Positions 3,849-21,247 are shown, counted from the stretch's first letter. The stretch: 32,000 nt of DNA from an uncultured Bacteroidales bacterium (GCA_937901925.1 CALGTS010000016.1:1-32000), one strand, 5' to 3'. Numbers and translations: made by a program. The notes: generated by a model from the letters alone, not told the origin.

Positions 3849-3920
3849 CCGTCGAAAATATCAAATAGTATTAACGAAAAAACAACAAAAAAAAGAAAAA
3901 GACTAAAAACCAACTAAATA

Positions 3921-4106
3921 CATATTATAGATAGCGTTTGTGGCTATCCTTGAACGTCAAATTTCCACAACGTCCTCGTTGCGAGGGCAAAAACCAATCA
4001 AGGAGAGTTATAAATGCCGTAGTAATACGGCGTGGAATGACTTGTTAGATTGGTGGGGCGTGGAAACCCTGACGTTCAGGCAAGGAATAAGTTCCACGCT
4101 TTTTTT
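3921..4106 (+). ncRNA. Unclassified structured RNA, copy A (5' end uncertain), ending in an intrinsic terminator
   Basis: Highly similar to 13778..13961. Differences fall in loops or are compensatory in helices. Indels break all reading frames between copies. It ends with a GC-rich stem plus T-run. Confidence 0.7.
4058..4106 (+). terminator. Intrinsic terminator of RNA copy A
   Basis: GCGTGGAA (4058-4065) pairs with TTCCACGC (4092-4099) and is followed by T7 (4100-4106). Confidence 0.7.
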
Positions 4107-4155
4107 ATGCAATTCACGAAAAAAAACGATATGAGGCAAAAAAACATTACTAAGA

Positions 4156-4227: not shown

Positions 4228-7200
4228 ATGAAAAAAGGAATGATTACATTTTTAGCGATTTTATGGGCATTCTCTCTTGCGAATGCCCAAACCGTAACGC
4301 TGACTTTCACGGGACGTGATGCCAGCAGCCAACACGTGCAACTCCATCGAGTATGTGTTACAAACCTCACAAGAGGTTGGCAAGAAACCATTTATTGGCC
4401 CGACACAACATTGTCGATGCAAAACAGTACGGGAATAAGCGAGAACGGGTTGGGAGAAGGTTTCTCTTTGGCACAAAATGTACCCAATCCCTTTTCCGGA
4501 GAAACCGAGGTGATTATGGTCACAGATGCAACTGGTGAAGTTTTTCTTACAGTGAGCGATGTTACGGGCAAGTCCGTTGCTGTTTTTTCGAGGATGTTGG
4601 AACCAGGCGGGCACCATTTTCGGATACGTTTGGCGGTTGCGCAAACCTACATCCTCACCGCCCGGCAAGGTGCAAGGAGTGCCTCCGTTAAAATGGTGAA
4701 CAAGGGTACGTCAAAGGGCAATGAAATCCTCTACGAGGGAAGTGGGAATCCCATCTCCTATACATTGAAGTCCAGCACCACGCATCCCTTCACCTTTGGC
4801 GACCAAATGGAATATGTGGGCTATGCTGTCATCAATGGCAGTGAAGAGGAGAGCCAGCGCATCACCCAGGCGCAAGGCGCTTCACAGACATTTGTGATGC
4901 AATTTCAGGGAGAGCAACACAGATTGCCGACAGTTATTACAAGTGCGGTAACGGAAATAACGGAAAACTCTGCTTTATGCGGGGGGAGTGTTACGGATGA
5001 AGGTAGCGGTGCAGTGACGGGAAGAGGTGTGTGCTGGGGCACATCTCATAATCCTACCATAAATGACAGCTTGACCGCAGAAGGTTCTGGCATTGGCTCT
5101 TTCACGAGTAATATTACGGAATTGGAATCCTCCACAACGTATTATGTCCGAGCTTACGCCACGAATAATGTGGGAACGGCGTATGGGCAAGAAATTGCTT
5201 TTACAACAGTGGATGAAATATTGCCATCAGTGACGGGAAATATCACCTATAATCAGTACACATGCGTACATATTGCAGGATCTGTTGACTATGAGGGAAG
5301 CAGCCCGGTTTTGGAAAAAGGCGTATGTTGGTCAACCTCACCTAATCCTACAATTGCCGATAACTATATGAGTTTTGGTGGTGGTGTCGGATCTTATAGT
5401 TGTTCTATAACAGATTTGAACCCTGAAACAAGATACTATTTTTCAGTGTATGCCAGAAATAATGCGGGAATAACCTGTGGACCTGTGAATGGAGGAGGCT
5501 ATGACGGATCTGTGACAACAGGTTATTATCCTACTCCTTATTTTGACAACATTAGTAATCCGACTGTTATTGATGAAAGCACCATGCAGATTTCGTTTGA
5601 TGTAACATGGTATCCAACTACTTATTGCAGAGATTCTATTGTTGAAAAAGGTTTCTGCTGGACCACTTCGAATAGTCACTACTACCAATCACCCACTCTT
5701 TCTGATAATTACATCTCATTGGGGGCTGGAGAAGGAAGTGTGACATATACCATGACAGGTCTAACGCCGAATGTTTATTATCACTTCCGTCCCTACGCTA
5801 TCACAACGGCAGGAGTGACATTTTATGGCAGCACTTTCTTCAAAAAAATAATCTTGCACACTCCGCAAGTCAGTACAGCCAGCGTGAGCGACATCACAGA
5901 TATATCGGCTGTGTGTGGCGGCAACGTAACAGGTACGGGCACAAATCAATTTGACGCTGTCGTAACGGCGCGAGGCGTATGTTGGAGCACTTCTCATAAT
6001 CCTACTATTGCAGATAGTCATACCTCTGATGGCAGTGGCACGGGCAGTTTCACAAGCAGTATTACAGGGCTTGCACCCGGCACAACGTATTATGTTCGGG
6101 CGTATGCGACAAACAGTATTGGGACAGCTTATGGAAACGAGGTGAATTTCACGACGGCTGTACCCGTCATTTTGCCTTCAGTGACAACTTCGCCCGTATT
6201 AAACATCACGGAGCATGCGGCATCTTGCAGCGGCAACGTCATTTCCGATGGGGGTACAACAGTTACGGGAAGAGGAGTATGTTGGAGCACTTCCCATAAT
6301 CCCACTATTGTAGATAACCATACTTATGGCGGCAGTGGTACGGGCAATTTTGACTGTATCATCTCAGGACTCGCATCTGGAACGACGTATTACGCACGAG
6401 CGTTTGCAATCAATAATATAGGGGTGGCGTATGGTGGTGAATTGGAATTCACTACCCTCCAGGTGCAATCATGTCCCAACATACCAACAGTTACCGACTA
6501 TGACGGTAACACATACAATACGGTACAAATTGGCAACCAATGTTGGATGAAAGAAAACTTGCGCACCACGCATTATGCAGATGGCACTGCTATCACACTT
6601 GCCCAAGGTAGTGGGAGTTCGAATACCATCCCATTTTATTACACGAACAACGGCGGCTACCACTATTATAATTGGCCGGCAGCGAAAGGATGGGGTTCTG
6701 ACGGTGTGAATTCAATATGCCCAGAGGGATGGCATGTGCCAAGTGCTGAGGAGTGGTTGCTGTTAATTCAATATGTAAGAAGCCAAAGCCAATATGCCTG
6801 TGATAATAACTATGCGTATATTGCAAAAGCATTAGCATCTACATCTTCAGTTTGGTCTAATAGTACAGATTACTGTGCAGTGGGCAACAATGAAATCCTC
6901 AACAATGGTACGGGTTTTAGTGCAATGCCTGCTGGAATTTTTGGGAATAATGGGAATAATTGGTCTTCTGTTGCAATTGCTACATTTTGGTCTGCAACAG
7001 GGGAAATAGGAACAACATCGCTTGCAAACGCCATGAAGATTTACTACAATAGCCCTACTGTAGATATTTCATCATATGATAAAAGTGTTGGTCTTGCCAT
7101 TCGCTGTCTCCGTGACGGTACTTCTTCGGCTGGATTACCCACTGTCATTACTAATTCGATGAGTGATATTTCTGAAACGACTGCCACATGTGGCGGTAAT

Positions 7201-8097
7201 ATAGTATCAGACGGTGGAACACCTGTCACCTCTCGTGGTGTATGTTGGTCAACCTCACCTAATCCTACAATAAATGACTTTCATACTAATAATGGAATAG
7301 GCATAGGGAGTTTTATTAGCAACATCACGGGACTTACTCATGGCACTACCTATTATGCACGTGCATACGCCACTAATGCTAATGGGACTTCTTACGGCGC
7401 AGAGGTGACTTTTACAACCTCCATAACATGTGGAGTACACACGGTAAGTGATTATGATGGAAACGAATATAATACAGTACAGATTGGTGACCAATGTTGG
7501 ATGAAAGAGAATATGCGAACCACGCACTTCGCTGACGGCAGGACTATTGCACAAGCAACTGTTTCCCAATATTCTTCCAGTGATCCTTATTATTACAATC
7601 CTGGCTTTGACACGGAGTACGGTTTTTTTTACAATTGGATTGCCATGACTTATGCCACATCTACCAGTGGCTGGGATCCGAGCGGTGTGCGACAAGGTGT
7701 CTGTCCGATGGGTTGGCATGTTCCAAGCGATAGTGAGTGGACAGAATTGACACAGTATGTGGGAAGCCAAAGTCAATACAGATGTGGTAACAACAACACC
7801 TATATTGCTAAAGCCTTGGCGAGTACTACTGGATGGGATGTTCACGTAACAAACACTTGTCACGTAGGCTATTTGCAAAGTGGAAACAATGCCACTGGTT
7901 TCAGTGCCTTGCCGGCAGGTAGTTACCTGCATATGGGTAGCTTTTTCAATTCATCTTATTATGCCAATTTTTGGAGTGCTACCGAAAACAGCAGTACGCA
8001 TGGAATCAGGTGGTATTTGGTATATTTTTCTCCGAATATAAACAGCGACACATGTGCTAAAGCTAATGCCTATTCCGTCCGCTGCCTCCGCGATTAA
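4228..8097 (+). CDS. Large secreted repeat protein: signal peptide, N-terminal T9SS-CTD-like domain, six ~90-aa Ig/FN3-like repeats, two FISUMP (Fibrobacter succinogenes major paralogous) domains
   Basis: Signal peptide 'FLAILWAFSLANAQ'. 'LAQNVPNPFSGETEV...LEPGGHHFRI...TYILTA...VKMV' matches the T9SS sorting-domain pattern. The repeats carry 'RGVCWSTSHNPTI...TTYYVRAYATN..GTAYG'. 'GNQCWMKENLR...GWHVPS..EW...FSA.PAG...FWSAT...RCLRD' occurs twice (about 6472-7116 and 7429-8094). Confidence 0.85.
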   Translation: MKKGMITFLAILWAFSLANAQTVTLTFTGRDASSQHVQLHRVCVTNLTRGWQETIYWPDTTLSMQNSTGISENGLGEGFSLAQNVPNPFSGETEVIMVTDATGEVFLTVSDVTGKSVAVFSRMLEPGGHHFRIRLAVAQTYILTARQGARSASVKMVNKGTSKGNEILYEGSGNPISYTLKSSTTHPFTFGDQMEYVGYAVINGSEEESQRITQAQGASQTFVMQFQGEQHRLPTVITSAVTEITENSALCGGSVTDEGSGAVTGRGVCWGTSHNPTINDSLTAEGSGIGSFTSNITELESSTTYYVRAYATNNVGTAYGQEIAFTTVDEILPSVTGNITYNQYTCVHIAGSVDYEGSSPVLEKGVCWSTSPNPTIADNYMSFGGGVGSYSCSITDLNPETRYYFSVYARNNAGITCGPVNGGGYDGSVTTGYYPTPYFDNISNPTVIDESTMQISFDVTWYPTTYCRDSIVEKGFCWTTSNSHYYQSPTLSDNYISLGAGEGSVTYTMTGLTPNVYYHFRPYAITTAGVTFYGSTFFKKIILHTPQVSTASVSDITDISAVCGGNVTGTGTNQFDAVVTARGVCWSTSHNPTIADSHTSDGSGTGSFTSSITGLAPGTTYYVRAYATNSIGTAYGNEVNFTTAVPVILPSVTTSPVLNITEHAASCSGNVISDGGTTVTGRGVCWSTSHNPTIVDNHTYGGSGTGNFDCIISGLASGTTYYARAFAINNIGVAYGGELEFTTLQVQSCPNIPTVTDYDGNTYNTVQIGNQCWMKENLRTTHYADGTAITLAQGSGSSNTIPFYYTNNGGYHYYNWPAAKGWGSDGVNSICPEGWHVPSAEEWLLLIQYVRSQSQYACDNNYAYIAKALASTSSVWSNSTDYCAVGNNEILNNGTGFSAMPAGIFGNNGNNWSSVAIATFWSATGEIGTTSLANAMKIYYNSPTVDISSYDKSVGLAIRCLRDGTSSAGLPTVITNSMSDISETTATCGGNIVSDGGTPVTSRGVCWSTSPNPTINDFHTNNGIGIGSFISNITGLTHGTTYYARAYATNANGTSYGAEVTFTTSITCGVHTVSDYDGNEYNTVQIGDQCWMKENMRTTHFADGRTIAQATVSQYSSSDPYYYNPGFDTEYGFFYNWIAMTYATSTSGWDPSGVRQGVCPMGWHVPSDSEWTELTQYVGSQSQYRCGNNNTYIAKALASTTGWDVHVTNTCHVGYLQSGNNATGFSALPAGSYLHMGSFFNSSYYANFWSATENSSTHGIRWYLVYFSPNINSDTCAKANAYSVRCLRD

Positions 8098-8127
8098 CAT
8101 AAAAATTCAATAAATATGGGAGGCAGC

Positions 8128-8154
8128 CGAAAATCCCTCAAAGAGTAGGCGAAA
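8128..8154 (+). repeat. Cassette leader repeat, copy 1
   Basis: 'cgaaaatccctcaaagagtaggcgaaa' here versus 'cgaaaatccctcaatgagcaggcaaaa' at 9746-9772. Each lies a few tens of nt upstream of a low-GC nuclease gene. Confidence 0.55.
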
Positions 8155-8172
8155 GAATAAAAATCTATTATT

Positions 8173-9168
8173 ATGACGAATAATAAATCAACCCAAAGTA
8201 ACACACCGAGTAAATTTTTTAAACTACCATACAATATGGATGGTAACAGCTGTACAACACTTTTTAAGCACGGGTATTTCAATTTCCCTATAAAAGAATA
8301 TAATGGATTGGGACGAAACAAAGAACATTGTCTTGGCAGTTATACATTATTCGTTGCAAAGGATGTAAAGGAAAAGTATGCGAAAGACGGCTTCATAAGC
8401 GAAATACTTAACATGATTGATAATGACAAGGTTCAAATAAGAATATTTACTTCTCCTTACAAAAGGGGAGGCAAGAAAGGAGAGGTCGTTCGTTGTGCTA
8501 TCGATTATATCTTTTTGCAACAAATCAAAAAACTGTTTGTCAGTACTCTGGCTTATCTATATGCAAAAAAAGATGTTCCAGAAATGGAATCCATGGAGTT
8601 TACTTTCGACTATTCGGACTTGGAAGCCAGAACAGTCTCTTTGTCTTCTTTGAATTTATATACACCATTGGACAACCCTTTTTTTGAGTATGCGAGAAAT
8701 TATGCCTCTTTCCTTTCTTTGGAAGACATCAGTTCTGGAAAACTGAAAACACAAGATGACTCTGAAAGAAACGATTTCTACAAACCCGAACTACTGTCAC
8801 CGTGGAAAACGGCGGATAACATTGACAAAGATAAATCTTATTTATTAGATATTCCAGGAATATATATGCTGTATAATTCTAACAACAACAATTTCTATAT
8901 CGGCAAATCCAAAAACCTTTTGCAACGCATCAAGAAACATTATGATGACGAAAACGATCCGTCATACGGGTTCACACATTACCGCTACAGTATAATCCAA
9001 AGCGAATATTTTGATGTTTTAGACTTGATTGAGAACGCTGCCATACATGATGTAGCATGGATTTTGAATATGCCAGAATCAAAAAGATATAAAAAAGCGC
9101 TTTCTACTTTTGCTGATATAAACAACTGCATAATGACAAATAAGATAGAACGTCAAACAAAGAAATAA
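8173..9168 (+). CDS. GIY-YIG nuclease-domain protein (C-terminal) with an uncharacterised N-terminal region
   Basis: 'IPGIYMLYNSNNNNFYIGKSKNLLQRIKKHY' gives GIY-x10-YIG plus the conserved Arg, with a downstream 'LIENAAIHD' Glu. Visibly low-GC ORF. Confidence 0.75.
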   Translation: MTNNKSTQSNTPSKFFKLPYNMDGNSCTTLFKHGYFNFPIKEYNGLGRNKEHCLGSYTLFVAKDVKEKYAKDGFISEILNMIDNDKVQIRIFTSPYKRGGKKGEVVRCAIDYIFLQQIKKLFVSTLAYLYAKKDVPEMESMEFTFDYSDLEARTVSLSSLNLYTPLDNPFFEYARNYASFLSLEDISSGKLKTQDDSERNDFYKPELLSPWKTADNIDKDKSYLLDIPGIYMLYNSNNNNFYIGKSKNLLQRIKKHYDDENDPSYGFTHYRYSIIQSEYFDVLDLIENAAIHDVAWILNMPESKRYKKALSTFADINNCIMTNKIERQTKK

Positions 9169-9247
9169 TAATCGTCAGTTTTCCACACCCCACTCGCCAC
9201 CCTGCCACTTTTTGGCAGGGTGGCGTTCTATTTTTGCCGCGTTGAAA
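9165..9247 (+). repeat. Junction module copy 2: conserved tail, perfect 12-bp GC-rich hairpin and -7 promoter box
   Basis: The tail 'ataataatcgtcagttttccacacc' (9165-9189) is identical to 11746-11770. The hairpin is GCCACCCTGCCA-ctttt-TGGCAGGGTGGC (9196-9224). TAttTTTG lies at 9229-9236. The module probably acts as a terminator followed by a promoter. Confidence 0.85.
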
Positions 9248-9284
9248 TTGAGAGAATATTTTATAACCCTTAAATTCCAAAAAA

Positions 9285-12583: not shown

Positions 12584-13552
12584 ATGGATAAGCTCAAGAA
12601 GTGCATCTGGATTGTCAACACGGTAGCGGCAGCTGGTGATGCGGGCATCACATTGACCGAACTCAACCGCAAGTGGACCGCCGACCCCGAGAAAGACCCT
12701 ATCCCATATCGCACTTTCCTCCGACTGCGGGACTACATTGCCAACGTTTTCGGCATTGACATCGATTGCGACAAGAGGTATAACGCCTACTATATCCCTT
12801 ATCGCGACGAGTTGTACGATGACAGACTGAAAATGTGGCTGCTCAACAGTTTCGCTATGCACAGTCGGCTGTCGGGCAATCTGGAACTTCGACGACGGGT
12901 GCGCTTTGAGGAAATTCCGGGTGGCAACCGATGGTTGGATCCTATCATGGAAGCTATGCAACAATTCAGCAAGATTTCATTCCTCTACCAAAAGGAGTAT
13001 GAAACAGAAAAAACTTCATACCCGAACTGTGCACCTTTGGCATTGAAACTCTTTAAGCAGCGGTGGTATCTGATAGCGGACAAGGGCGTGGGTGAAATAC
13101 GCTTTTTCGCCCTTGACCGCATAGCGGAAGTGAAATCCCTTGATGAGAAATTCCAGATACCCTCGGATTTCGATCTGGACGATCTCTTCCAGGATGCCTT
13201 TGGAATGTATGTGAATCCCGAAATCGCCACCGAACGTATTGTGGTAAAGGCAGACAGAGACCAAAGCCTCTACTTGATGAGTTTGCCGTTACACCACAGC
13301 CAGCAAATCATTGAAACAACGGATGATTACTCGATTTTCTCTTGGCGACTGAAACCTACATACGATTTCATCCAACAACTACTCACAATGAATCTACATA
13401 TTGAGGTTTTAGAGCCGTTGTCGTTGCGAACCAAGATTGCCGAATTACTGAAAAGTATGGCCAAGAAACATAACTCTTCGCCAACACCTCACAGTTCGCG
13501 AAAGCTCGTTACAAAGGCTACAAAAAACTCAATGAAGGAAAATAAAAATTGA
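12584..13552 (+). CDS. WYL-domain transcriptional regulator (paralog B), tail apparently frameshifted
   Basis: 'FKQRWYLIADKG...FFALDRI' WYL signature and 'LPLHHSQ' shared with paralog A. The last ~25 codons are out of frame relative to the conserved tail at 13477-13545. Confidence 0.8.
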   Translation: MDKLKKCIWIVNTVAAAGDAGITLTELNRKWTADPEKDPIPYRTFLRLRDYIANVFGIDIDCDKRYNAYYIPYRDELYDDRLKMWLLNSFAMHSRLSGNLELRRRVRFEEIPGGNRWLDPIMEAMQQFSKISFLYQKEYETEKTSYPNCAPLALKLFKQRWYLIADKGVGEIRFFALDRIAEVKSLDEKFQIPSDFDLDDLFQDAFGMYVNPEIATERIVVKADRDQSLYLMSLPLHHSQQIIETTDDYSIFSWRLKPTYDFIQQLLTMNLHIEVLEPLSLRTKIAELLKSMAKKHNSSPTPHSSRKLVTKATKNSMKENKN

Positions 13553-13565
13553 GTAAATAGATTTC

Positions 13566-13592
13566 GAGGAGGTGATTTCCTCCTCTTTTTTT
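13566..13592 (+). terminator. Intrinsic terminator after WYL gene B
   Basis: GAGGAGG-tgattt-CCTCCTC followed by T7. Confidence 0.7.
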
Positions 13593-13624
13593 ATTTAAAA
13601 CCAAAGGTGTATGTAAAAAAATTG

Positions 13625-13632
13625 TATTTTTG
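13625..13632 (+). promoter_or_regulatory. -7 promoter box (TAttTTTG) upstream of RNA copy B
   Basis: Exact TAnnTTTG match. It lies about 145 nt upstream of the start of the conserved RNA block, so the RNA 5' end is uncertain. Confidence 0.3.
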
Positions 13633-13777
13633 CAATCTGTAACAGATTCATTGTTACATAGAAAAAACGAATGGATAGGCTTTGCCCGACAACTACGTTC
13701 CGCTTTGCCTACCATCGAAGAGATAGAAAATAATTTAAACAAAAATAATATCGATTGAGATAAGAAACTAACATATA

Positions 13778-13961
13778 CATATTATATTAGATAGCGTTTG
13801 TGGCTATCCTTGAAGTCCAATTTCCACATCGTCCTCGAAAGAGGACACAACTCATCAAGGATTAGTTATGAATGCCGTAGTATCACGGCGTGGAATAACT
13901 TGTTAGATGAGTGGGCGTGGAAACCCGGACTTCAAGCAAGGAATAAATTCCACGTTTTTTT
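13778..13961 (+). ncRNA. Unclassified structured RNA, copy B, in the leader position of an XRE gene
   Basis: Paralog of 3921-4106. The terminator is GCGTGGAA (13915-13922) paired with TTCCACG (13948-13954) plus T7 (13955-13961). The T-run abuts the ATG at 13962. Confidence 0.7.
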
Positions 13962-14177
13962 ATGACAGGAATCAACGACATACACATTGGCAGACGCATC
14001 AAAGCGAAATTAAGAGAGCAAGGGCGCACCTCCGTCTGGTTGGCCACACAGATTCCTTGTTCCCCAAATCATCTGTACAAGGTGTATGACAAGTCCTCCA
14101 TCAACACCGACCTATTGAAGCGTATCTCCCTGATTTTGGATTATAATTTCTTTGAGGATTTTATCCAAAATGGATAG
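13962..14177 (+). CDS. XRE-family helix-turn-helix protein (71 aa)
   Basis: 'IGRRIKAKLREQGRTSVWLATQIPCSPNHLYKVYDKSSINTDLLKRIS' fits the HTH_XRE pattern. Confidence 0.7.
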   Translation: MTGINDIHIGRRIKAKLREQGRTSVWLATQIPCSPNHLYKVYDKSSINTDLLKRISLILDYNFFEDFIQNG

Positions 14178-14232
14178 GCTTTACTATCAACATTAAATAG
14201 GTTTTGCAATTTGTTTTCCAAGAAATTTACTA

Positions 14233-14240
14233 TACATTTG
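14233..14240 (+). promoter_or_regulatory. -7 promoter box (TAcaTTTG) for the exported-protein operon
   Basis: Exact TAnnTTTG match 43 nt upstream of the ATG at 14283. Confidence 0.4.
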
Positions 14241-14282
14241 TGGCGTTATTTTTTTTTAAAAATTATACTTAAATAGGTTAAT

Positions 14283-14759
14283 ATGAAATTCAATAGTTTA
14301 TTCGGAAAACTCTTGATGTTCACGATTGTCATTCTACTTTTTTCAACAAATATAAAAGCGCAAGAGTGGCATTATGAGATTTCCTGCGCTGGCATAGGAG
14401 TGAAAGGCAACTTTCTGGTGGAAGTAACCAGCTATGACAAAACTGTTGACGCAGCTCTTGCACAGATGAGAAAAGATGCGGTACACGGTGTTCTTTTTAA
14501 AGGCATGGACGGCAAGTGCATGCAGAAACCTTTGGTGAGTAAGGCAGAGTTGGAGTCCGAATACGAATCTTTTTTTTCCAAATTCTTCAGTTCATCAGGA
14601 GACTATGGCAAATATTTGGAAGATGATACGAATACGAGTATGTCTGTGGTGAAGGTGGGGAAAAAGCAATACAAAGTAACCAAAGTACTTTCCGTAAAAA
14701 AGGATATGTTGCGTAAAGATTTGGAAAAGGCCGGCATACTTAAACCTTTAGGATATTAG
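14283..14759 (+). CDS. Exported hypothetical protein (paralog of the next gene)
   Basis: Signal peptide 'LLMFTIVILLFSTNIKAQ'. It shares 'C.G.G..G', 'K.AV..V.FKG', 'PL' and 'FF...GDY..Y' with 14792..15280. Confidence 0.8.
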   Translation: MKFNSLFGKLLMFTIVILLFSTNIKAQEWHYEISCAGIGVKGNFLVEVTSYDKTVDAALAQMRKDAVHGVLFKGMDGKCMQKPLVSKAELESEYESFFSKFFSSSGDYGKYLEDDTNTSMSVVKVGKKQYKVTKVLSVKKDMLRKDLEKAGILKPLGY

Positions 14760-14791
14760 ACTTTTGTCATATTCTAAAATATTAGACAACA

Positions 14792-15280
14792 ATGGCTAAA
14801 ATGAATTGTAATATGAGAAAATTTTTAGGGACACTCGCTTTCTTGTGTGGATTGCTGGTGTCGTTCGGACAAATAGGAGAATATGGACTCCCAACTATTG
14901 AGTGTATGGGAGTGGAAGGCGATGGATCGCAAACCTTAAGAGTATGGGGAATTGGGCGCAACAAAACCGATGCCCTTGAGCAAGCCCAAAAGAATGCCGT
15001 CAAGGAAGTAATTTTCAAAGGAATTCGCACCGGCAGCAAAGAGTGTGAAATGCGCCCTCTTATTTACGAAGTGAACGCAGAAGAAAAATACCAGTATTAT
15101 TTCAATATTTTCTTCAAAGACGACGGAGATTACAAACAGTATGTTACGATGGAAGATCGTCGTCCGCTAACAAACAAAAAAGAAAACACCAAGACACAAG
15201 TCAAGTATGGTGTGACAGTGCGTGTGCTTCGCGCCGAGTTGCTGCAGCGACTGATTAACGACAAAATTATCAAACCCTAA
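14792..15280 (+). CDS. Exported hypothetical protein (paralog of the previous gene)
   Basis: Signal peptide 'LGTLAFLCGLLVSFGQ'. An alternative start at 14813 (MRKFLG) is plausible. Confidence 0.8.
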   Translation: MAKMNCNMRKFLGTLAFLCGLLVSFGQIGEYGLPTIECMGVEGDGSQTLRVWGIGRNKTDALEQAQKNAVKEVIFKGIRTGSKECEMRPLIYEVNAEEKYQYYFNIFFKDDGDYKQYVTMEDRRPLTNKKENTKTQVKYGVTVRVLRAELLQRLINDKIIKP

Positions 15281-15284
15281 TGAT

Positions 15285-16013
15285 ATGAAAAGATTTTTTT
15301 TGCTTTTTGTTTGCTGCTTTTTGTTTGCTGCATCCCTGAACGCTCAGGATGTAATTTATCTGAATAATGGTAATGTAGTGAGGGGGAAAGTGGTAAAAAA
15401 CACCGATGAGGTATCTGTTGTGTTGGGTAATGGGGAAACTTGGACTTATCGTAAAGCAGAAGTCAGGGAAGTACAGATTGGCAGTGCAGAGGTGAAGACT
15501 CCCGAAGAACCCAAAGGTGCAAAATTCGTTAACTATTCCGACTTAGACAAAGGCTGGTGGTGCGCCGCGGAAGCAGTTGCCGGTGTATCGTGGTATAAAA
15601 GCCGTAGAATGGGGATTTGCGCATTGACGTTCATCAACGGATATCGTTTCTCAGAATTTTTGAAAATAGGTGTCGGTATTGGAGCAAGATGTAACCTGAA
15701 TAACGACCACAATTATTTGCTATTCCGAAAAGAGCATAAAATCCAGGCTCCAATGAGCGTACCCCTCTTCATCAATGCAAGGGGAAATATTATTAGCCAG
15801 AAGCCACGTATGTGCGTGCCTTTCTGGAACGCTGACATAGGATACGCCATATTTGACAATTTCTTCTTTGACGCTGGCATCGGATTCAAGGTCGGCACCA
15901 AAAGAAACAACTTTGTGATGAGTGCCAATTACATGGGACAAGTAGTCCATTATGATCCTGGTAATACTTGTTTCGGCAACAGTATCTTGTTTAAAATAGG
16001 TTACGAATTTTAA
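15285..16013 (+). CDS. Putative outer-membrane beta-barrel protein
   Basis: Signal peptide 'FLLFVCCFLFAASLNAQ'. A small N-terminal beta domain ('VIYLNNGNVVRGKVV') is present. The C-terminal half shows alternating aromatic/Gly-rich patterning and ends in '...KIGYEF' (terminal Phe). Confidence 0.65.
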   Translation: MKRFFLLFVCCFLFAASLNAQDVIYLNNGNVVRGKVVKNTDEVSVVLGNGETWTYRKAEVREVQIGSAEVKTPEEPKGAKFVNYSDLDKGWWCAAEAVAGVSWYKSRRMGICALTFINGYRFSEFLKIGVGIGARCNLNNDHNYLLFRKEHKIQAPMSVPLFINARGNIISQKPRMCVPFWNADIGYAIFDNFFFDAGIGFKVGTKRNNFVMSANYMGQVVHYDPGNTCFGNSILFKIGYEF

Positions 16014-16024
16014 TTTACCCTGAT

Positions 16025-16969
16025 ATGAGACAACCCATATTGACTATCGTTTTTCTTTGTCTTGCTTTAAGTTTGACGGCTCAAGAGAAGAAGCCCACCA
16101 TCATGGTGATTCCCAGCGACGTGTGGTGCAACAGAAATGGTTATATGACCACATTCGACAACCAAGGCACTCTGCAGAAAGTGCCAGACTACAAAACCGC
16201 ATTTCAGAATGATGCGGACCTTTTATTGGTCATAGGCACTATTAACACGTTGATGGCCGACAGAGGATTTCCACTGAAGAATCTTGAGTCGGTACTGAAA
16301 TCCATTGAGCAGCGTATGGCGGAAGACAACATGACCATCAGCAAGACCTCGGGTGCGGAGTTGGCTGAATCGCCACTCGACCGCTTGCGTCGCACGGCAA
16401 AAGCGGATATCATCATGCAGATTACATGGACAGTGAACACTACTGGACCGAAAAGGTCTATCACATACAATCTGCAAGGCATTGATTCTTATACCGACAA
16501 GCAGATTGCTGGAGCACAAGGAACGGGAAATCCATCATTTAGCGCAGAAACTCCTGTGTTATTGGAAGAGGCAGTTTTGACACATATGGACAACTTCTGT
16601 TTCCAACTGCAAAGTTTTTTTGACGATCTGGTGGACAAAGGACGCGAAGTCTCTGTAGATATCAGAGTATTCGATACGGGCGAGATGGACTTGGAAACAG
16701 AGTTTAACGGCGTTGAATTGACGGAAATCATTGATGAATGGATGGATGCCAACACCGTAAACCATATCTTTAACAAGTCCGACGCCAGCGAGAATTATAT
16801 CCAATATGAACAAGTGAGAATACCTTTGTACAAGGCCAATGGTGCTACCATGGATGCGGAAAGTTTTGTGCGCAATCTGCGCACTTACCTGCGTCAAGAG
16901 TACCAGATTCAGTCAAAGGTGATGACTCGCGGTCTGGGTAGAGCTATTTTAGTCATTGGTGAAAAATAA
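16025..16969 (+). CDS. Exported hypothetical protein
   Basis: Signal peptide 'ILTIVFLCLALSLTAQ'. 'KKPTIMVIPSDVWCNRNGY' resembles a Bacteroidetes-specific DUF I recall only vaguely. Confidence 0.75.
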   Translation: MRQPILTIVFLCLALSLTAQEKKPTIMVIPSDVWCNRNGYMTTFDNQGTLQKVPDYKTAFQNDADLLLVIGTINTLMADRGFPLKNLESVLKSIEQRMAEDNMTISKTSGAELAESPLDRLRRTAKADIIMQITWTVNTTGPKRSITYNLQGIDSYTDKQIAGAQGTGNPSFSAETPVLLEEAVLTHMDNFCFQLQSFFDDLVDKGREVSVDIRVFDTGEMDLETEFNGVELTEIIDEWMDANTVNHIFNKSDASENYIQYEQVRIPLYKANGATMDAESFVRNLRTYLRQEYQIQSKVMTRGLGRAILVIGEK

Positions 16970-16986
16970 TTAAAAATCCATCAGTT

Positions 16987-17946
16987 ATGAAAAAAATCAC
17001 ATTATATTCCATGTTAGCTCTCCTATTTTTCCTAATTGTCAACAAGACAAACGCACAAAATGATTTCAAAGAAGAGGTGTCGCGAATTGCCTTGTCCGTT
17101 GTGCTGCCAGAACAAACTGAGCCGCTGCCAATAGGGGCTGAAACTTATCTGGTCAACAAACTGAAACAAGCGGCTGCCCAAAACGGACTGGCAGCGGAAG
17201 AAGGTTATTCCCGTTTTTTCATTACAGCAGTGATTACCCCAACGAGCAGAGATATTGTGGCAGGACCTCCACAGCAAATTGCACAGAATTTTGACATCAC
17301 CCTATACATCGCTGATGGCTTCGACCAGCAACTTTTTGCCACCACTACGGTAAACGCCAGAGGGGTCGGTACCAATGAGACTAAATCCTATATCGATGCG
17401 ATGAAACACATTAACACCAACTCCAAACAATTCAAGGAATTTGCGGAGACTGGCAAGGCCAAAATTATTGCCTATTATGAGACACAGTGCGACAATATCA
17501 TCAAGAAATCACAGTCGTTGGCCAAGCAGAAGAACTATGAGGCGGCCTTGTATGAGCTTACCGCCATCCCTGATGTGTGCAAGTGTTACGGTCGTGCTTT
17601 GGAAGCCACCGCTGAGATTTTTCAGCAGTATATTGACTATCTGTGCGATGTGAATTTGGCGAAGGCGCGTATGGTATGGGCAGCCGAACAGAATGCGGAA
17701 GGGGCAAAGAAAGCCGGTGAGTATTTGGCCTATATCTATCCCGATGCCAAATGCTATAAGGAAGGTATGGACTTATACCGCGAAATCAAAGGCAAGGTGC
17801 TTGATGACTGGAAGTTTGTGATGAGGATTTACGAGGACGGTGTGAACTTGGAGAAAGAACGCATCAGAGCCTGGCGCGATGTCGGTGTGGCCTACGGCAA
17901 CCACCAGCAACCCATCAGCAACTATGTGAACTGGCTGTTACGATAG
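16987..17946 (+). CDS. Exported hypothetical protein with a helical (TPR-like?) C-terminal half
   Basis: Signal peptide 'MLALLFFLIVNKTNAQ'. The C-terminal 'KNYEAALYELTAIPDVCKCYGRALEA...' looks helical-repeat-like. Confidence 0.75.
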   Translation: MKKITLYSMLALLFFLIVNKTNAQNDFKEEVSRIALSVVLPEQTEPLPIGAETYLVNKLKQAAAQNGLAAEEGYSRFFITAVITPTSRDIVAGPPQQIAQNFDITLYIADGFDQQLFATTTVNARGVGTNETKSYIDAMKHINTNSKQFKEFAETGKAKIIAYYETQCDNIIKKSQSLAKQKNYEAALYELTAIPDVCKCYGRALEATAEIFQQYIDYLCDVNLAKARMVWAAEQNAEGAKKAGEYLAYIYPDAKCYKEGMDLYREIKGKVLDDWKFVMRIYEDGVNLEKERIRAWRDVGVAYGNHQQPISNYVNWLLR

Positions 17947-17994
17947 TAAGAAAACAACTTTTCAACTTATATTATTAACCTTAAAAATATCATT

Positions 17995-18870
17995 ATGAAA
18001 AAACTTTTATCACTGGCAATTGTATTGCTTTTCTGTTATGGATTGAATGCCCAAGTTTTTGAAGGCACCTACAAAGGAAAATACTCCTTCAAGTATGAAA
18101 CTGATCAGGACAGGATGGTTGAACAATTTAAAGCCAATGTGGATAAAAATCCTGAAATTCCGGCCGCTTCCAAAGCAATGGCAAAGATGATGGCTAAAGC
18201 ACTGGTAAAGAATTATGTCACCCGTCAAGAAACAGAACAACACATCACCTCTTTCCCTGATGGAAAGTTTACCCAATATCTGTGGATTGATGGTAAAAAC
18301 AATCGTTGGGTTTCTTTCTGTCCTGAATTAGGAAGAGTCATTGTCCGTTTCCCGGGAGAAGGCAAGGATTATATCTTGTATCCGAAATTGGGCATTGGAT
18401 GTAAAGTGGAGTATGCTGCCAATGAAAGTATCAAGGAAATGTTTACGGTTAATCATTTTGTGGATCCCACAAAAGATGCGAAGAAAATCAATGGCATTAC
18501 TTGTATTCCTGCCTATAATTTATTCAAATATGAAGATGTCGGAGGTGAAATGGTTGATACTGTTACGTATAAAGGAGTGCTTTGTGTCAAATTCCCAGTA
18601 GAAGGTTATGCCCATGCCGATTATCAGTCGTTCTGTATCCAACGTAATTTGTCCAATGAGTTCTTGACCTCTACGGAAAACATTCTGAAAATGACTGAGG
18701 TCCAAATAGATGGTAAGAACTTTATTATTCCTGAAAATATAAATATCATCGATACCAAGAAATTTGTGAAACAGGTGAAGAAGATTGTGGATGGTGGTGA
18801 AGTCAATGAGAAAATGGCAATTTCTTATGATGAAGATGTTCCTGCCGTGGTTTGGGATATCGTGAAATAA
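17995..18870 (+). CDS. Exported hypothetical protein
   Basis: Signal peptide 'LLSLAIVLLFCYGLNAQ'. No family recognised. Confidence 0.75.
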   Translation: MKKLLSLAIVLLFCYGLNAQVFEGTYKGKYSFKYETDQDRMVEQFKANVDKNPEIPAASKAMAKMMAKALVKNYVTRQETEQHITSFPDGKFTQYLWIDGKNNRWVSFCPELGRVIVRFPGEGKDYILYPKLGIGCKVEYAANESIKEMFTVNHFVDPTKDAKKINGITCIPAYNLFKYEDVGGEMVDTVTYKGVLCVKFPVEGYAHADYQSFCIQRNLSNEFLTSTENILKMTEVQIDGKNFIIPENINIIDTKKFVKQVKKIVDGGEVNEKMAISYDEDVPAVVWDIVK

Positions 18871-18879
18871 TATTGTGAG

Positions 18880-19887
18880 ATGAGAAAAATATTATCTTTT
18901 TCAGTGTTATTATTGCTTGTGGGGACTGTCGTTGGACAGTCCCTTACAGCAAAAAAAGAGGGAAAGCAATGGGGTTTTGTCAATGAACGGGACTCTTTTG
19001 TGGTGGCACCTCAGTATGATGCCGTAGGCGATTTTATTGGTGCATACGCATGGGTGAATCGTGGCGGTAAGGTGAAGAAAAATAATCTGCCTGTTGGCGG
19101 AAAATGGGGCCTGATCAATGAAAAGGGAGAGCTTGTATGTCCGTTAGAGTACGATTTTGTGGCTATGCCTTCTGAAGAACTGGTGGCTGTGAATGTGGGA
19201 GGTGTGATGTCAGACAATAATATGCAGGGAGGCAAGTGGGGGTACGTGGATGTTCGTACTGGAAAACTTGTTGTTTCTGCTGAATATGACAAAGTTGGCA
19301 ATTTCTATAATGGAGCTGCCTGGGTGGTCAAAAACAAACAATATGGGTTGATTAACAATAAGGGAGAACTGACCATTGACTGTCAATATGAAAGTGTGTC
19401 TGATTGCTATAACAATAAGGTGGTATGGCTTGAAAAAAACGGCAAATATGCCTTGTCTGATCAGAAAGGGCATCTGCTGACTGATTTTGTGTATATTGAT
19501 TATAGCGGATTTGTAGAGAATGTGGCATGGGTAAAAAATGACGAGTCTTTGTTTGGACTGATTAATGGCAAAGGGGAGATATTGTTACAACCCCGCTATA
19601 TCAAAGTGATGCCTTTCTATAATAATGTGGCTGCCGTTTTTTCCAAAGCAGGTGCAATCGGTTTGGTGAACACCCAGGGTAAAGAAATTGCCAGAACAGT
19701 GTATACCAGATCTTCTCGGCGTTTCGGTGTGACACAGTTTAAAACCTCCACAAAAATATTCAGCTATCTTACTCATTCCCAACTGGGTAACAGCTGGATA
19801 GACCAAGATGGAAAAGTTATTGCCCGTGGCGTGAAAATTGTATATAAAATCACAGATGTCATTCCTGACGCCTTGTGGGATTTCTAA
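18880..19887 (+). CDS. Exported WG-repeat (KWG-type) protein
   Basis: Signal peptide, then repeated 'GKWGLINEKGELVCPLEYD', 'GKWGYVDVRTGKLVVSAEYD', 'YGLINNKGELTIDCQYE' and 'FGLINGKGEILLQPRY' units. Confidence 0.8.
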   Translation: MRKILSFSVLLLLVGTVVGQSLTAKKEGKQWGFVNERDSFVVAPQYDAVGDFIGAYAWVNRGGKVKKNNLPVGGKWGLINEKGELVCPLEYDFVAMPSEELVAVNVGGVMSDNNMQGGKWGYVDVRTGKLVVSAEYDKVGNFYNGAAWVVKNKQYGLINNKGELTIDCQYESVSDCYNNKVVWLEKNGKYALSDQKGHLLTDFVYIDYSGFVENVAWVKNDESLFGLINGKGEILLQPRYIKVMPFYNNVAAVFSKAGAIGLVNTQGKEIARTVYTRSSRRFGVTQFKTSTKIFSYLTHSQLGNSWIDQDGKVIARGVKIVYKITDVIPDALWDF

Positions 19888-19900
19888 ACAACAACTGCGT

Positions 19901-21151
19901 ATGAAAAAGAAAAGATATATTATATTGAGTTTGGCAATACTGATGTTCGTTTCGACCGTTTCAGGACAAGATAATCAGCATAAGCCATATAACAGAAGCT
20001 CTATCTATCCTTTATATGTCACACATCCTGGAACCAAGATGTTTGACGAAATATTTACCGCCTTGTGGGAGCTGCCAGTGCCGGACAAATTCAACGACCA
20101 TTGCCTGAGTTTGCGTATAGTGAATGCCGCTGACAGCAAGGATGCGGGAAAATTCGAAGAGGATATGGCCAAGTTTTTCGCCGAGAACCAGGTGGCTAAG
20201 CGTATGGTATCCAAATGGTTTAACCGTGACAAGGAGACAGGGGCTTTTGAAATCAATTTGGTGGCTGACAGGGGTTATTACAATGCTTCCCAAGCTGATT
20301 TGAACCTTGCATTGAAAACCGTCCGCGGACAAGCTATGTTGGCAGATGCCGGCGAACAACTGATACCCAATACTTTTATTGTGGTGAGTGATGTGACTTA
20401 CGTGGATAAGCAGGAAAGGGCTGAGAATGCCGCCGCGTTTTTTCAGGTTTTGGGTGCTGTGGCAGGCGCGGCTTCTGGAATTGGAGGTGGCGTTGGGAGT
20501 GGGGCAGATTTGGCAAAAAGTATTTCTGATCTGGGTGGAAGCATAAGTGATATGGTGGCTGGCTTTACAGTGAAAATAGAAAGCCACCTATTCCAGTTGG
20601 TATGGGATGATGCTACCGCCAGCACATTCTACAGTCAATATTATTACGATGCGCAAAATATTGATGAGGATAAGAAATCAGCTTACGAGGCTGATGAAAA
20701 AACTTTCAAACTGAAATATATTGGCTCGTACAAGGCTACCAGCGACAAAACTGTGATGCGTGGTGTGAAAAATGATGAAGAGGTTTTTCGTAAAGTATTG
20801 GCGCGTGCCATCGACAAAAACATCGTGGCTCTGCAAAAGGAATTTGATGTTTTCAAGGTGGTGGTTCCTGTGTACCAAGTGCAGAATAGTGATGTTCTTG
20901 TTCAGATTGGTTTGAAAGAGGGAGTGAGTGCCAATTCAAAATACGAAGTGTTAGAGCGTGTGGAAGATGCTGAGGGTAATATAAGTTATCAGCGAAAAGG
21001 TGTCATTAAACCAGTGGTCAACAAAATTTGGGATAACCGCTATATGGCTGTGGAGGAAGAGGCGGAGAACGCTTTGCTGAAATATACCACCTTCGAAGTT
21101 GTGTCGGGTAAAGGTTTTTATCCTGGTATGCTCGTGCGCGAAATCAGATAG
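19901..21151 (+). CDS. Exported hypothetical protein with an internal Gly-rich segment
   Basis: The ATG at 19901 gives the signal peptide 'YIILSLAILMFVSTVSGQ'; the ORF-track start at 19838 overlaps the previous gene. The Gly-rich segment is 'GAVAGAASGIGGGVGSGADL...LGGSISDMVAGF'. Confidence 0.75.
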   Translation: MKKKRYIILSLAILMFVSTVSGQDNQHKPYNRSSIYPLYVTHPGTKMFDEIFTALWELPVPDKFNDHCLSLRIVNAADSKDAGKFEEDMAKFFAENQVAKRMVSKWFNRDKETGAFEINLVADRGYYNASQADLNLALKTVRGQAMLADAGEQLIPNTFIVVSDVTYVDKQERAENAAAFFQVLGAVAGAASGIGGGVGSGADLAKSISDLGGSISDMVAGFTVKIESHLFQLVWDDATASTFYSQYYYDAQNIDEDKKSAYEADEKTFKLKYIGSYKATSDKTVMRGVKNDEEVFRKVLARAIDKNIVALQKEFDVFKVVVPVYQVQNSDVLVQIGLKEGVSANSKYEVLERVEDAEGNISYQRKGVIKPVVNKIWDNRYMAVEEEAENALLKYTTFEVVSGKGFYPGMLVREIR

Positions 21152-21215
21152 CAACGGTATCACTTGGCGACAAATAATGGACGCAACTTATCGTGTCTGC
21201 ATATCCCAAAAACCA

Positions 21216-21247
21216 GGCGTTGACCATCGCGGTCAGCGCCTTTTTTA
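21216..21247 (+). terminator. Intrinsic terminator closing the 8-gene operon
   Basis: GGCGTTGACC-atcgc-GGTCAGCGCC followed by T6. Confidence 0.7.

Follow-up and report, generated by a model that had tools for sequence, protein, structure and literature searches.

Rings that lie against the periplasmic side of the outer membrane are built by CsgG, PelC, FlgT, and the DUF330-family lipoprotein PqiC. In Vibrio, the H-ring contains a 26-mer of FlgT together with 58-mer rings of the lipoproteins FlgP and FlgO, whose C-terminal loops reach into the adjacent rings (bioRxiv 10.64898/2025.12.02.691832). Here, we analyzed an operon from an uncultured Bacteroidales bacterium whose products are predicted to share folds with some of these proteins. 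The operon lies on a DNA stretch of 32,000 nucleotides (nt; GCA_937901925.1 CALGTS010000016.1:1-32000), which was analyzed as a whole and is referred to as the window, and it comprises eight genes, designated g1 to g8 in their order and all located on the + strand. A first-pass annotation had described them as a single unit of exported proteins lacking characterized functions and had likened the set, by analogy only, to CsgG/curli-type and LPP20/FlgT-type envelope assemblies. At the level of predicted structure, the analogy gained substance: the model of g8 matched FlgT, and the model of g4 matched GNA1162, CsgG, PelC, and FlgT. Bacteroidota are, to our knowledge, not flagellated, and we know of no function for GNA1162.

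The product of g8 (19901-21151, 416 amino acids) belongs to one of the core families of the locus. Its AlphaFold2 model reached a predicted local distance difference test (pLDDT) value of 76 and a predicted template-modeling score (pTM) of 0.71. When this model was compared with PDB structures by Foldseek, the best matches were a chain of the Vibrio LPHT-ring solved by cryo-electron microscopy (8z5n_0, E 1.6e-6) and the crystal structure of FlgT (3w1e, E 3.5e-6). Both alignments had a probability of 1.0 and comprised approximately 420 columns, i.e. they extended over the full length. The next PDB matches covered the C-terminal ~95 residues alone and were N-terminal barrels of F1-ATPase beta subunits. 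For this C-terminal barrel, the top match in a viral structure library was a protein annotated as "Flagellar assembly protein T, C-terminal domain," with a target-normalized template-modeling (TM) score of 0.69 and a root mean square deviation of 3.4 Å. Neither g8 nor any of 55 relatives matched the Pfam families FlgT_N, FlgT_M, or FlgT_C at E ≤ 10, and the g8 family profile retrieved no PDB chain at the same threshold. A glycine-zipper-like segment had been noted in g8 before. The segment does exist as a hydrophobic stretch rich in Gly, Ala, and Ser (20426-20551, + strand, residues ~176-217), and its pLDDT is below 50, but it is specific to this lineage and not family-wide. The insertion is Gly-rich in Bacteroidales only, whereas an ordinary helical insert occupies the same position in Flavobacteriales and Chitinophagales. 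The stretch thus does not define the family, and a glycine zipper acting as a family-wide membrane anchor was rejected for the same reason.

The most conserved component of the locus is g4 (16025-16969, 314 amino acids). This protein matched Pfam DUF6175 (PF19672) over the complete profile (positions 1-293 of 293) with an E value of 2e-121 and 404.9 bits versus a cutoff of 23, and PF19672 was carried by all 120 g4 homologues among the matches listed. Hence, of the three genes at 16025, 16987, and 17995 that had initially been listed as unknowns, the latter two (g5 and g6) keep this status, but the first does not. Identity between orders amounted to 55-62% for g4 versus 26-49% for g1, g5, and g8, and an alignment of 16 g4 sequences contained 73 invariant columns. 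Conservation as high as this fits a hub with many interfaces. The AlphaFold2 model of g4 was of higher confidence than that of g8 (pLDDT 87, pTM 0.80). Its best Foldseek matches included the Neisseria lipoprotein GNA1162 (E 8e-5, target-normalized TM 0.57), the pre-pore form of CsgG (E 3.5e-4, 210-230 aligned columns), and PelC (target-normalized TM 0.57-0.61). Matches to FlgT chains (E ~1e-3) and to the DUF330 protein XCC0632 were also obtained. In addition to the N-terminal domain, the model contains a second alpha/beta domain comprising residues ~207-311.

How far does the locus resemble the described systems? With the H-ring, it would share a protein with the FlgT three-domain architecture over the whole length including the C-terminal barrel, as predicted for g8, and this protein is paired with small (~160 amino acids) exported proteins, which take the form of lipoproteins in several lineages. 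In contrast, sequence similarity to FlgT is absent, g8 has its extra helical or Gly-rich insertion, there is no LP-ring for g8 to encircle, and DUF6175, g5, and the accessory proteins described below are without H-ring counterparts. Flagellar genes are missing from the window and from 28 related loci. In the case of curli, the likeness consists of an operon made of exported accessory proteins and of the alpha/beta core of CsgG, which the N-terminal domain of g4 is predicted to adopt. Unlike CsgG, g4 is not lipidated (its leader lacks a Cys and thus a lipobox), and its score for Pfam CsgG falls short of the applied thresholds. Its monomer model contains no long hydrophobic or disordered segment suited to CsgG-type transmembrane hairpins; a short, polar stretch (residues 106-112) is the only loop modeled with low confidence. 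Neither a CsgA/B-like amyloid subunit nor CsgE/F was found among the eight products. PelC and GNA1162 gave the best domain-level structural matches of the g4 model, but both lack its second alpha/beta domain, and no PelB-like tetratricopeptide repeat/barrel protein or polysaccharide synthesis genes were found in the window. Judged by sequence and gene context, the locus belongs to none of the three systems, H-ring, curli, or Pel. As it is predicted to possess building-block folds of all three, it may work in a similar manner and serve beneath the outer membrane as a platform or collar.

The conservation of the locus was evaluated with a set of 20 genome loci that were fetched via g4 and searched with all eight proteins. 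A g1-like gene was present in all 20 loci, g5 in 19, and g8 in 18, with one of the two loci lacking g8 being a contig of just 3.6 kb; a separate g2 gene occurred in 14. The loci stem from Bacteroidales, Paludibacter, Alistipes, Flavobacteriales, Chitinophagales, and Saprospirales. Genes for g1/g2, g4, g5, and g8 co-occur across four orders (Bacteroidales, Flavobacteriales, Chitinophagales, and Saprospirales), while the flanking genes differ in every lineage, so a lack of co-occurrence in other genomes, which would have spoken against a functional unit, was not observed. As judged from these comparisons, the g1-g8 set is a conserved module and not a chance cluster. In close relatives, the gene order is g1-g2-g3-g4-g5-[slot]-g8, where the slot is the position taken by g6 and g7 in the window. 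The order is g1-g3-g2-g4-g5-g8 in Alistipes and in the cultured Dysgonomonas macrotermitis, and g8-g1-(g2)-g4-g5 in Flavobacteriales and Chitinophagales. Four genes (g8, g1, g4, and g5) make up the smallest module, which is exemplified by Flavobacterium oncorhynchi.

The families are large and appear to be restricted to Bacteroidota as far as g1/g2, g4, and g8 are concerned. Among 8,000 scored candidates each (clusters at 90% identity), at least 6,608 relatives of g4 and at least 2,377 relatives of g8 were found at E ≤ 1e-5, and the g1/g2 family comprises 1,310 representative clusters at 50% identity. The source names of the homologues are "hypothetical," "DUF6175 family," or "WG repeat-containing," save one "LPP20 lipoprotein." Searches with the eight products against Pfam, NCBIfam, PADLOC, PHROGs, and PDB sequences yielded DUF6175 and WG repeats only, and nothing matched any characterized pathway. 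Pfam scans across whole families (19, 52, and 55 members, E ≤ 10) likewise gave no weak but consistent match to LPP20, FlgT, or CsgG. The literature searched contained nothing on DUF6175 or this gene set, and for the component families neither a name nor a solved structure nor a paper was found. Comparison of the four core families with each other by hhalign indicated no relation beyond the signal peptides, and the idea that they are diverged copies of one domain was dropped.

All eight products carry export signals. Inspection of the N termini by eye revealed a basic n-region and a hydrophobic core followed by Ala or Gly and then Gln in each case, in agreement with the first-pass annotation. 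The leaders of g1 to g8 end in IKA|QE, SFG|QI, LNA|QD, LTA|QE, TNA|QN, LNA|QV, VVG|QS, and VSG|QD, respectively. Such ends follow the Bacteroidetes "Q-rule," according to which leaders cleaved by signal peptidase I end before a Gln, the new N-terminal glutamine is cyclized, and the pattern is phylum-wide (PMC5837995). The operon products are therefore to be regarded as ordinary substrates of the Sec pathway and signal peptidase I rather than as a special set, and the (A/G)Q ends were discarded as a special trait of the operon. An uninterrupted run of eight predicted exported products is nevertheless in itself unusual. In other orders, lipoboxes are found in members of the g2 family and in one relative of g8, which fits a membrane-proximal location.

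Comparison of related loci (designated L002 to L008, L020, L021, and L026 to L029) indicated that the eight genes do not form one invariant block. The operon layout as such was confirmed, but at the sequence level the locus is composed of two sub-modules: a base consisting of g1-g5 and a swappable cassette consisting of g6, g7, and most of g8. Relatives of g6 (17995-18870, 291 amino acids) with 27-89% identity adjoin g8 in L002, L007, L026, L027, and L029, whereas the g6 slot is filled by other genes in L003-L006, L008, L020, and L021. When L002 was aligned with L003, g2-g5 were 94-100% identical, but the first 280 residues of g8 shared just 49% identity and different genes were located between g5 and g8. 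The same picture emerged for L006 versus L007, where g1-g5 were 94-99% identical and the N-terminal part of g8 was 45% identical. Nucleotide alignments placed the breakpoints at the end of g5 and within the last 40-135 codons of g8. The N-terminal part of g8, whose first ~280 residues form part of the exchangeable cassette, tracks the type of slot rather than the genomic background. At least three cassette types were distinguished: g6 plus g7, a 277-amino acid protein, and a protein of ~235 amino acids plus a longer WG-repeat protein. In the window, g7 (18880-19887, 335 amino acids) is the WG-repeat protein that the earlier annotation had recognized at this position; it contains six WG_beta_rep (PF14903) repeats (E 3e-47, 158.7 bits versus a cutoff of 25.6). 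Each cassette may constitute a unit that is stored or exchanged independently. In L026, an isolated g6-like/WG/g8 trio (6710-9272) adjoins a Bat/MoxR operon, and DUF6175 is not encoded within 8 kb of it. L027 (3680-9221) harbors a module with two tandem cassettes, each with its own g8 paralog. A further, small variable insertion was seen just past the operon terminator when L002 (15195-16767) was compared with L003, the flanks being otherwise ~90% identical.

The otherwise different cassette proteins end in similar C-terminal tails with the consensus (V/I)PxxLWD(F/Y) or IWD(V/I)xK. Examples are ..DVPAVVWDIVK in g6 (PAVVWDIVK encoded by 18841-18867), ..DVIPDALWDF in g7 (PDALWDF-COOH, 19864-19884), ..YTVPEDIWDF in the 277-amino acid family, and ..DVIPNELWDY in the long WG proteins. 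Open reading frames (ORFs) of at least 60 amino acids from the window and 21 loci were scanned with a regular expression for the tail. Only 15 of 2,015 ORFs matched, and all 15 were slot genes. The ~235-amino acid slot proteins of L005, L006, and L008 do not have the tail. Four further loci (L026-L029), fetched afterwards via diverse g8 homologues, served as a test set. In all four, the gene directly upstream of g8 encoded a tailed WG-repeat protein, with the ends ..IPDGLWDY, ..IPEKLWDY, ..IPEELWDY, and ..VPEVLWDF. Two of the g6-like proteins in these loci end in ..IWDVAK and a third ends in the variant ..MPDVFW. A looser version of the pattern produced two off-target matches among 522 ORFs, both of them to the same spurious frame of 65 amino acids. 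Every WG protein located directly upstream of g8 carries the tail.

The remaining components of the base are g1, g2, g3, and g5. The small exported proteins g1 (14283-14759, 158 amino acids, a core family ending in ..GF/GY) and g2 (14792-15280, 162 amino acids) had been proposed to be paralogs, and BLASTP supported this relationship (E 8e-15, 29% identity over 127 amino acids). A profile search of the g1/g2 family against 1.84 billion representatives brought up natural g2+g1 fusions (P0473 and P0474) inside otherwise canonical modules, which speaks for g1 and g2 acting as a pair. The two proteins are similar in size to LPP20/FlgP, and relatives of g2 carry lipoboxes. However, Pfam LPP20 was not matched by either 19 or 52 family members at E ≤ 10, and the family profile matched no PDB structure; for g1 itself, Pfam, NCBIfam, and PDB gave no match. 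A UniRef entry, a Dysgonomonas g2 homologue with 59% identity, bears the label "LPP20 lipoprotein," which profile searches did not back, and an attempted chain of intermediate homologues from g1/g2 to LPP20 failed since the search of 1.84 billion representatives listed only close relatives. LPP20-like membership of g1/g2 therefore found no support from any profile search.

The g3 product (15285-16013, 242 amino acids) is a putative small outer membrane beta-barrel. It ends in KIGYEF, and a terminal (K/R)(I/V)G(Y/F)(E/Q)F is kept in relatives, in line with the terminal Phe reported before. The protein has Gly/aromatic-rich strands preceded by a conserved N-terminal domain with the motif VIYLNNGNxV(R/K)G; the domain weakly matches NCBIfam Lepto_7_Nterm, below the cutoff. 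As no barrel family in Pfam, NCBIfam, or PDB was matched, the term barrel is used for g3 in a predictive sense. The gene is present in 10 of the 20 loci, also in Dysgonomonas, and has no detectable relation to the DUF3575 barrel adjoining the modules of Flavobacteriales. The core protein g5 (16987-17946, 319 amino acids) consists of an N-terminal alpha/beta region and a helical C-terminal half containing Cys; four Cys residues are nearly invariant. No significant family or PDB match was obtained for g5.

We favor the interpretation, at a probability of roughly 45%, that the module encodes a periplasmic platform tethered to the outer membrane, in which a FlgT-like adaptor docks tagged accessory proteins. 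Its components would bind one another in the periplasm, on the inner face of the outer membrane, and would make up two parts, a constant base and an exchangeable part. In the base, g4 would serve as the hub, possibly as a ring, g1 and g2 as paired small subunits, and g5 as an accessory protein. The tether to the membrane would be the putative barrel g3 in this lineage and lipidated g2 in other orders. The three-domain adaptor would be g8, with its variable N-terminal two-thirds co-evolving with the accessory proteins. These proteins, g6 and g7, may dock via their shared C-terminal tail much as FlgP and FlgO reach into neighboring rings of the H-ring with their C-terminal loops, the finding that suggested a role for the tails. 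Since every cassette type has the same tail, one would expect a conserved surface as the receptor, e.g. g4 or the C-terminal barrel of g8. An envelope scaffold or a display platform for WG-repeat proteins would be our guess for the cellular role.

Several points weigh against this interpretation. None of the searches established a sequence-level link to FlgT, CsgG, PelC, or LPP20, and the FlgT match stems from a 3Di alignment and domain-level fits of a predicted model. Predicted structures with informative matches pertain to g4 and g8 and not to g1, g2, g5, g6, or g7. Whole-chain TM-scores are low for the matches of g4 and g8 (0.2-0.3); because the value for g8 and FlgT is ~0.2, the domains of g8 would be arranged differently from those of FlgT, and the predicted likeness is one of domain order and domain folds. 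The "ring" is extrapolated from relatives in fold. Furthermore, g4 and g8 of the window are not lipoproteins, and neither a barrel nor a lipoprotein is encoded near the minimal modules of Flavobacterium and Chitinophagales. Finally, the occurrence of the L026 trio without a DUF6175 gene suggests that g8 may not need the base.

The resemblance of the g4 model to CsgG and PelC could also point to an export route of the curli or Pel type. Here, g4 would be a channel or collar at the outer membrane working with the g3 barrel, g6 and g7 would be substrates that are recognized by their tails and then secreted or displayed, and g8 would act as a substrate-specific adaptor. A common tail on otherwise unrelated proteins indeed looks like a sorting signal, and in Bacteroidales, Alistipes, and Dysgonomonas the module comes with a barrel gene, whose place is taken by the unrelated DUF3575 barrel in Flavobacteriales. 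Allelic replacement of cassettes is typically seen with proteins that are exposed at the surface or related to antagonism, and the exchange seen here would suit surface exposure. Yet the missing lipobox, the missing candidate hairpins, and the subthreshold CsgG score of g4 speak against a channel, the ~170 barrel residues of g3 would be too few for a protein conduit, and both a barrel and candidate substrates are missing from the four-gene modules. We consider such a route unlikely. That the products share no common structure at all, and are co-regulated but independent periplasmic proteins with binding or chaperone-like functions in envelope stress or cell wall control, in the manner of LpoB or the N-terminal domain of TolB, appears still less probable to us. 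The mutual unrelatedness of the four core families in hhalign comparisons would agree with it, as would the occurrence of the alpha/beta fold of g4 in proteins that do not form rings, such as GNA1162 with no known oligomeric role. It is difficult to reconcile, however, with four or five unrelated families staying linked across four orders while their neighbors change, with the g2+g1 fusions, with co-inheritance of the N-terminal part of g8 and the slot genes, and with a conservation of g4 that is unusual for an exported protein.

A further possibility is that the operon is part of the neighboring defense or mobile island, e.g. an anti-phage system acting at the envelope. Genes upstream in the window encode REase-ARP, two WYL/WCX, Mrr_N, GIY-YIG, and HSDR_N-like proteins, the window deviates from contig L001 in this upstream stretch despite 98.8% identity elsewhere, and polymorphism of the cassette would suit phage pressure. 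None of the eight proteins gave a meaningful PADLOC or PHROGs match, though, and the base composition of the operon is not distinct from that of its surroundings. Elsewhere, the module sits among unrelated housekeeping genes with no defense genes nearby, and the defense-like neighborhood therefore looks incidental. We regard a defense function of this kind as very improbable.

The division of the locus into two parts, its polymorphic cassette, and the C-terminal tag appear not to have been described before. These features concern large families in Bacteroidota, a dominant phylum of gut, rumen, soil, and water. Linking the g4 and g8 families to the fold class of outer membrane rings through predicted models gives a concrete architecture that can be tested, and a FlgT-like protein in a flagella-free phylum would bear on the origin of the accessory rings of high-torque motors. 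The short C-terminal tag of the cassette proteins is a compact candidate for a targeting signal. A more far-reaching proposal is that the platform represents a previously unrecognized outer membrane-associated machine that occurs across Bacteroidota and is a structural cousin of the H-ring and the curli/Pel collars, with the FlgT-like adaptor and the tagged WG clients as a recombining polymorphic cassette. We view this proposal as doubtful; if true, the module would constitute a new route for protein display or secretion, or else a variable device for surface interactions that is subject to diversifying selection, in a phylum that lacks flagella. With Dysgonomonas macrotermitis and Flavobacterium oncorhynchi as cultured carriers, genetics and cryo-tomography are within reach.

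The transcriptional layout of the operon agreed closely with the first-pass annotation. The eight co-oriented ORFs span 14283-21151, and all of the previously given starts and gaps of 4-48 nt were reproduced from the ORF coordinates, the intergenic distances from g1 to g8 being 32, 4, 11, 17, 48, 9, and 13 nt. For g8, the ORF listing gives a TTG ORF (19838-21151) with the ATG at 19901 inside it, and the latter was taken as the start because homologues begin at MKKKRY. A Bacteroidetes-type promoter (14210-14240, + strand) is located upstream of g1. The Bacteroidetes -7 consensus is TAnnTTTG, and TACATTTG at 14233-14240 fits it, 43 nt before the ATG of g1 and 19 nt downstream of a TTTG at 14210-14213. 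The pattern TTTG-N17-23-TAnnTTTG has a single + strand match in the whole window, at exactly this position; as approximately two chance matches per window are expected over both strands, the position is informative, but the count is not. Behind g8, an intrinsic terminator (21215-21247, + strand) is formed by an 11-bp stem with seven GC pairs (21215-21241) and a T run. It was the best-scoring site of the scan, and other terminator-like sites on the + strand inside the operon were weaker and located within coding sequence. A metagenome contig of 300 kb carries an identical copy of g4 along with the remainder of the operon at 98-100% identity, and the closest named relatives of the operon are uncultured rumen or gut Bacteroidales.

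As noted previously, the operon follows directly behind an XRE-like gene and a structured RNA-like element. The XRE-like gene (13962-14177, + strand) encodes a helix-turn-helix protein of 71 amino acids that had no Pfam match at E ≤ 0.01 and just a weak PADLOC match. Relatives were detected by tblastn in nine of the ten Bacteroidales loci exceeding 10 kb; in eight loci, they lie directly upstream of g1 on either strand, and in L006 the distance is ~6 kb. It is plausible that this gene encodes a dedicated regulator of the module. Upstream of it, genes for a WYL/WCX protein, a BspA-type leucine-rich repeat protein, and restriction-like proteins are located, and downstream of the operon, genes for GH97, a tRNA_edit-domain protein, a SprT-like protein, and pyrB/pyrI follow. 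The segment 4197-11736 of the window is absent from contig L001, which is otherwise 97-99% identical. It carries GIY-YIG, Mrr_N, HSDR_N-like, and DUF3293 genes beside REase-ARP and WYL/WCX genes and looks like a variable defense-type island. A link of the operon to this island was considered and rejected, given that relatives of the operon occur in unrelated neighborhoods.

The strongly structured RNA-like element (13790-13960, + strand, ~170-190 nt) has a minimum free energy of -70 kcal/mol (z -6.8) and ends in a T run directly before the ATG of the XRE-like gene. In L004, L005, and L020, it is likewise conserved ahead of the XRE-like gene, and five base pairs show compensatory changes among five sequences. 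A scan of 13500-14300 yielded no credible Rfam match for the element. The sole subthreshold match in this region was SraG on the minus strand (13564-13673, E 0.32, 21.5 bits versus a gathering score of 50), at a position outside the element. A second copy of the element with 85% identity is located at 3918-4109 (+ strand), upstream of a short ORF and a gene for a protein of 1289 amino acids (4228-8097, + strand), the latter lying directly downstream of this copy. The 1289-amino acid protein is exported and contains repeated Fn3-like modules and two Fib_succ_major domains (Fibrobacter succinogenes major; E 1.7e-61). Between this gene and that for the GIY-YIG-domain protein, the Rfam DUF805b RNA motif was found at 8117-8151 (+ strand) with 39.9 bits and an E value of 3.8e-8, above the gathering score.

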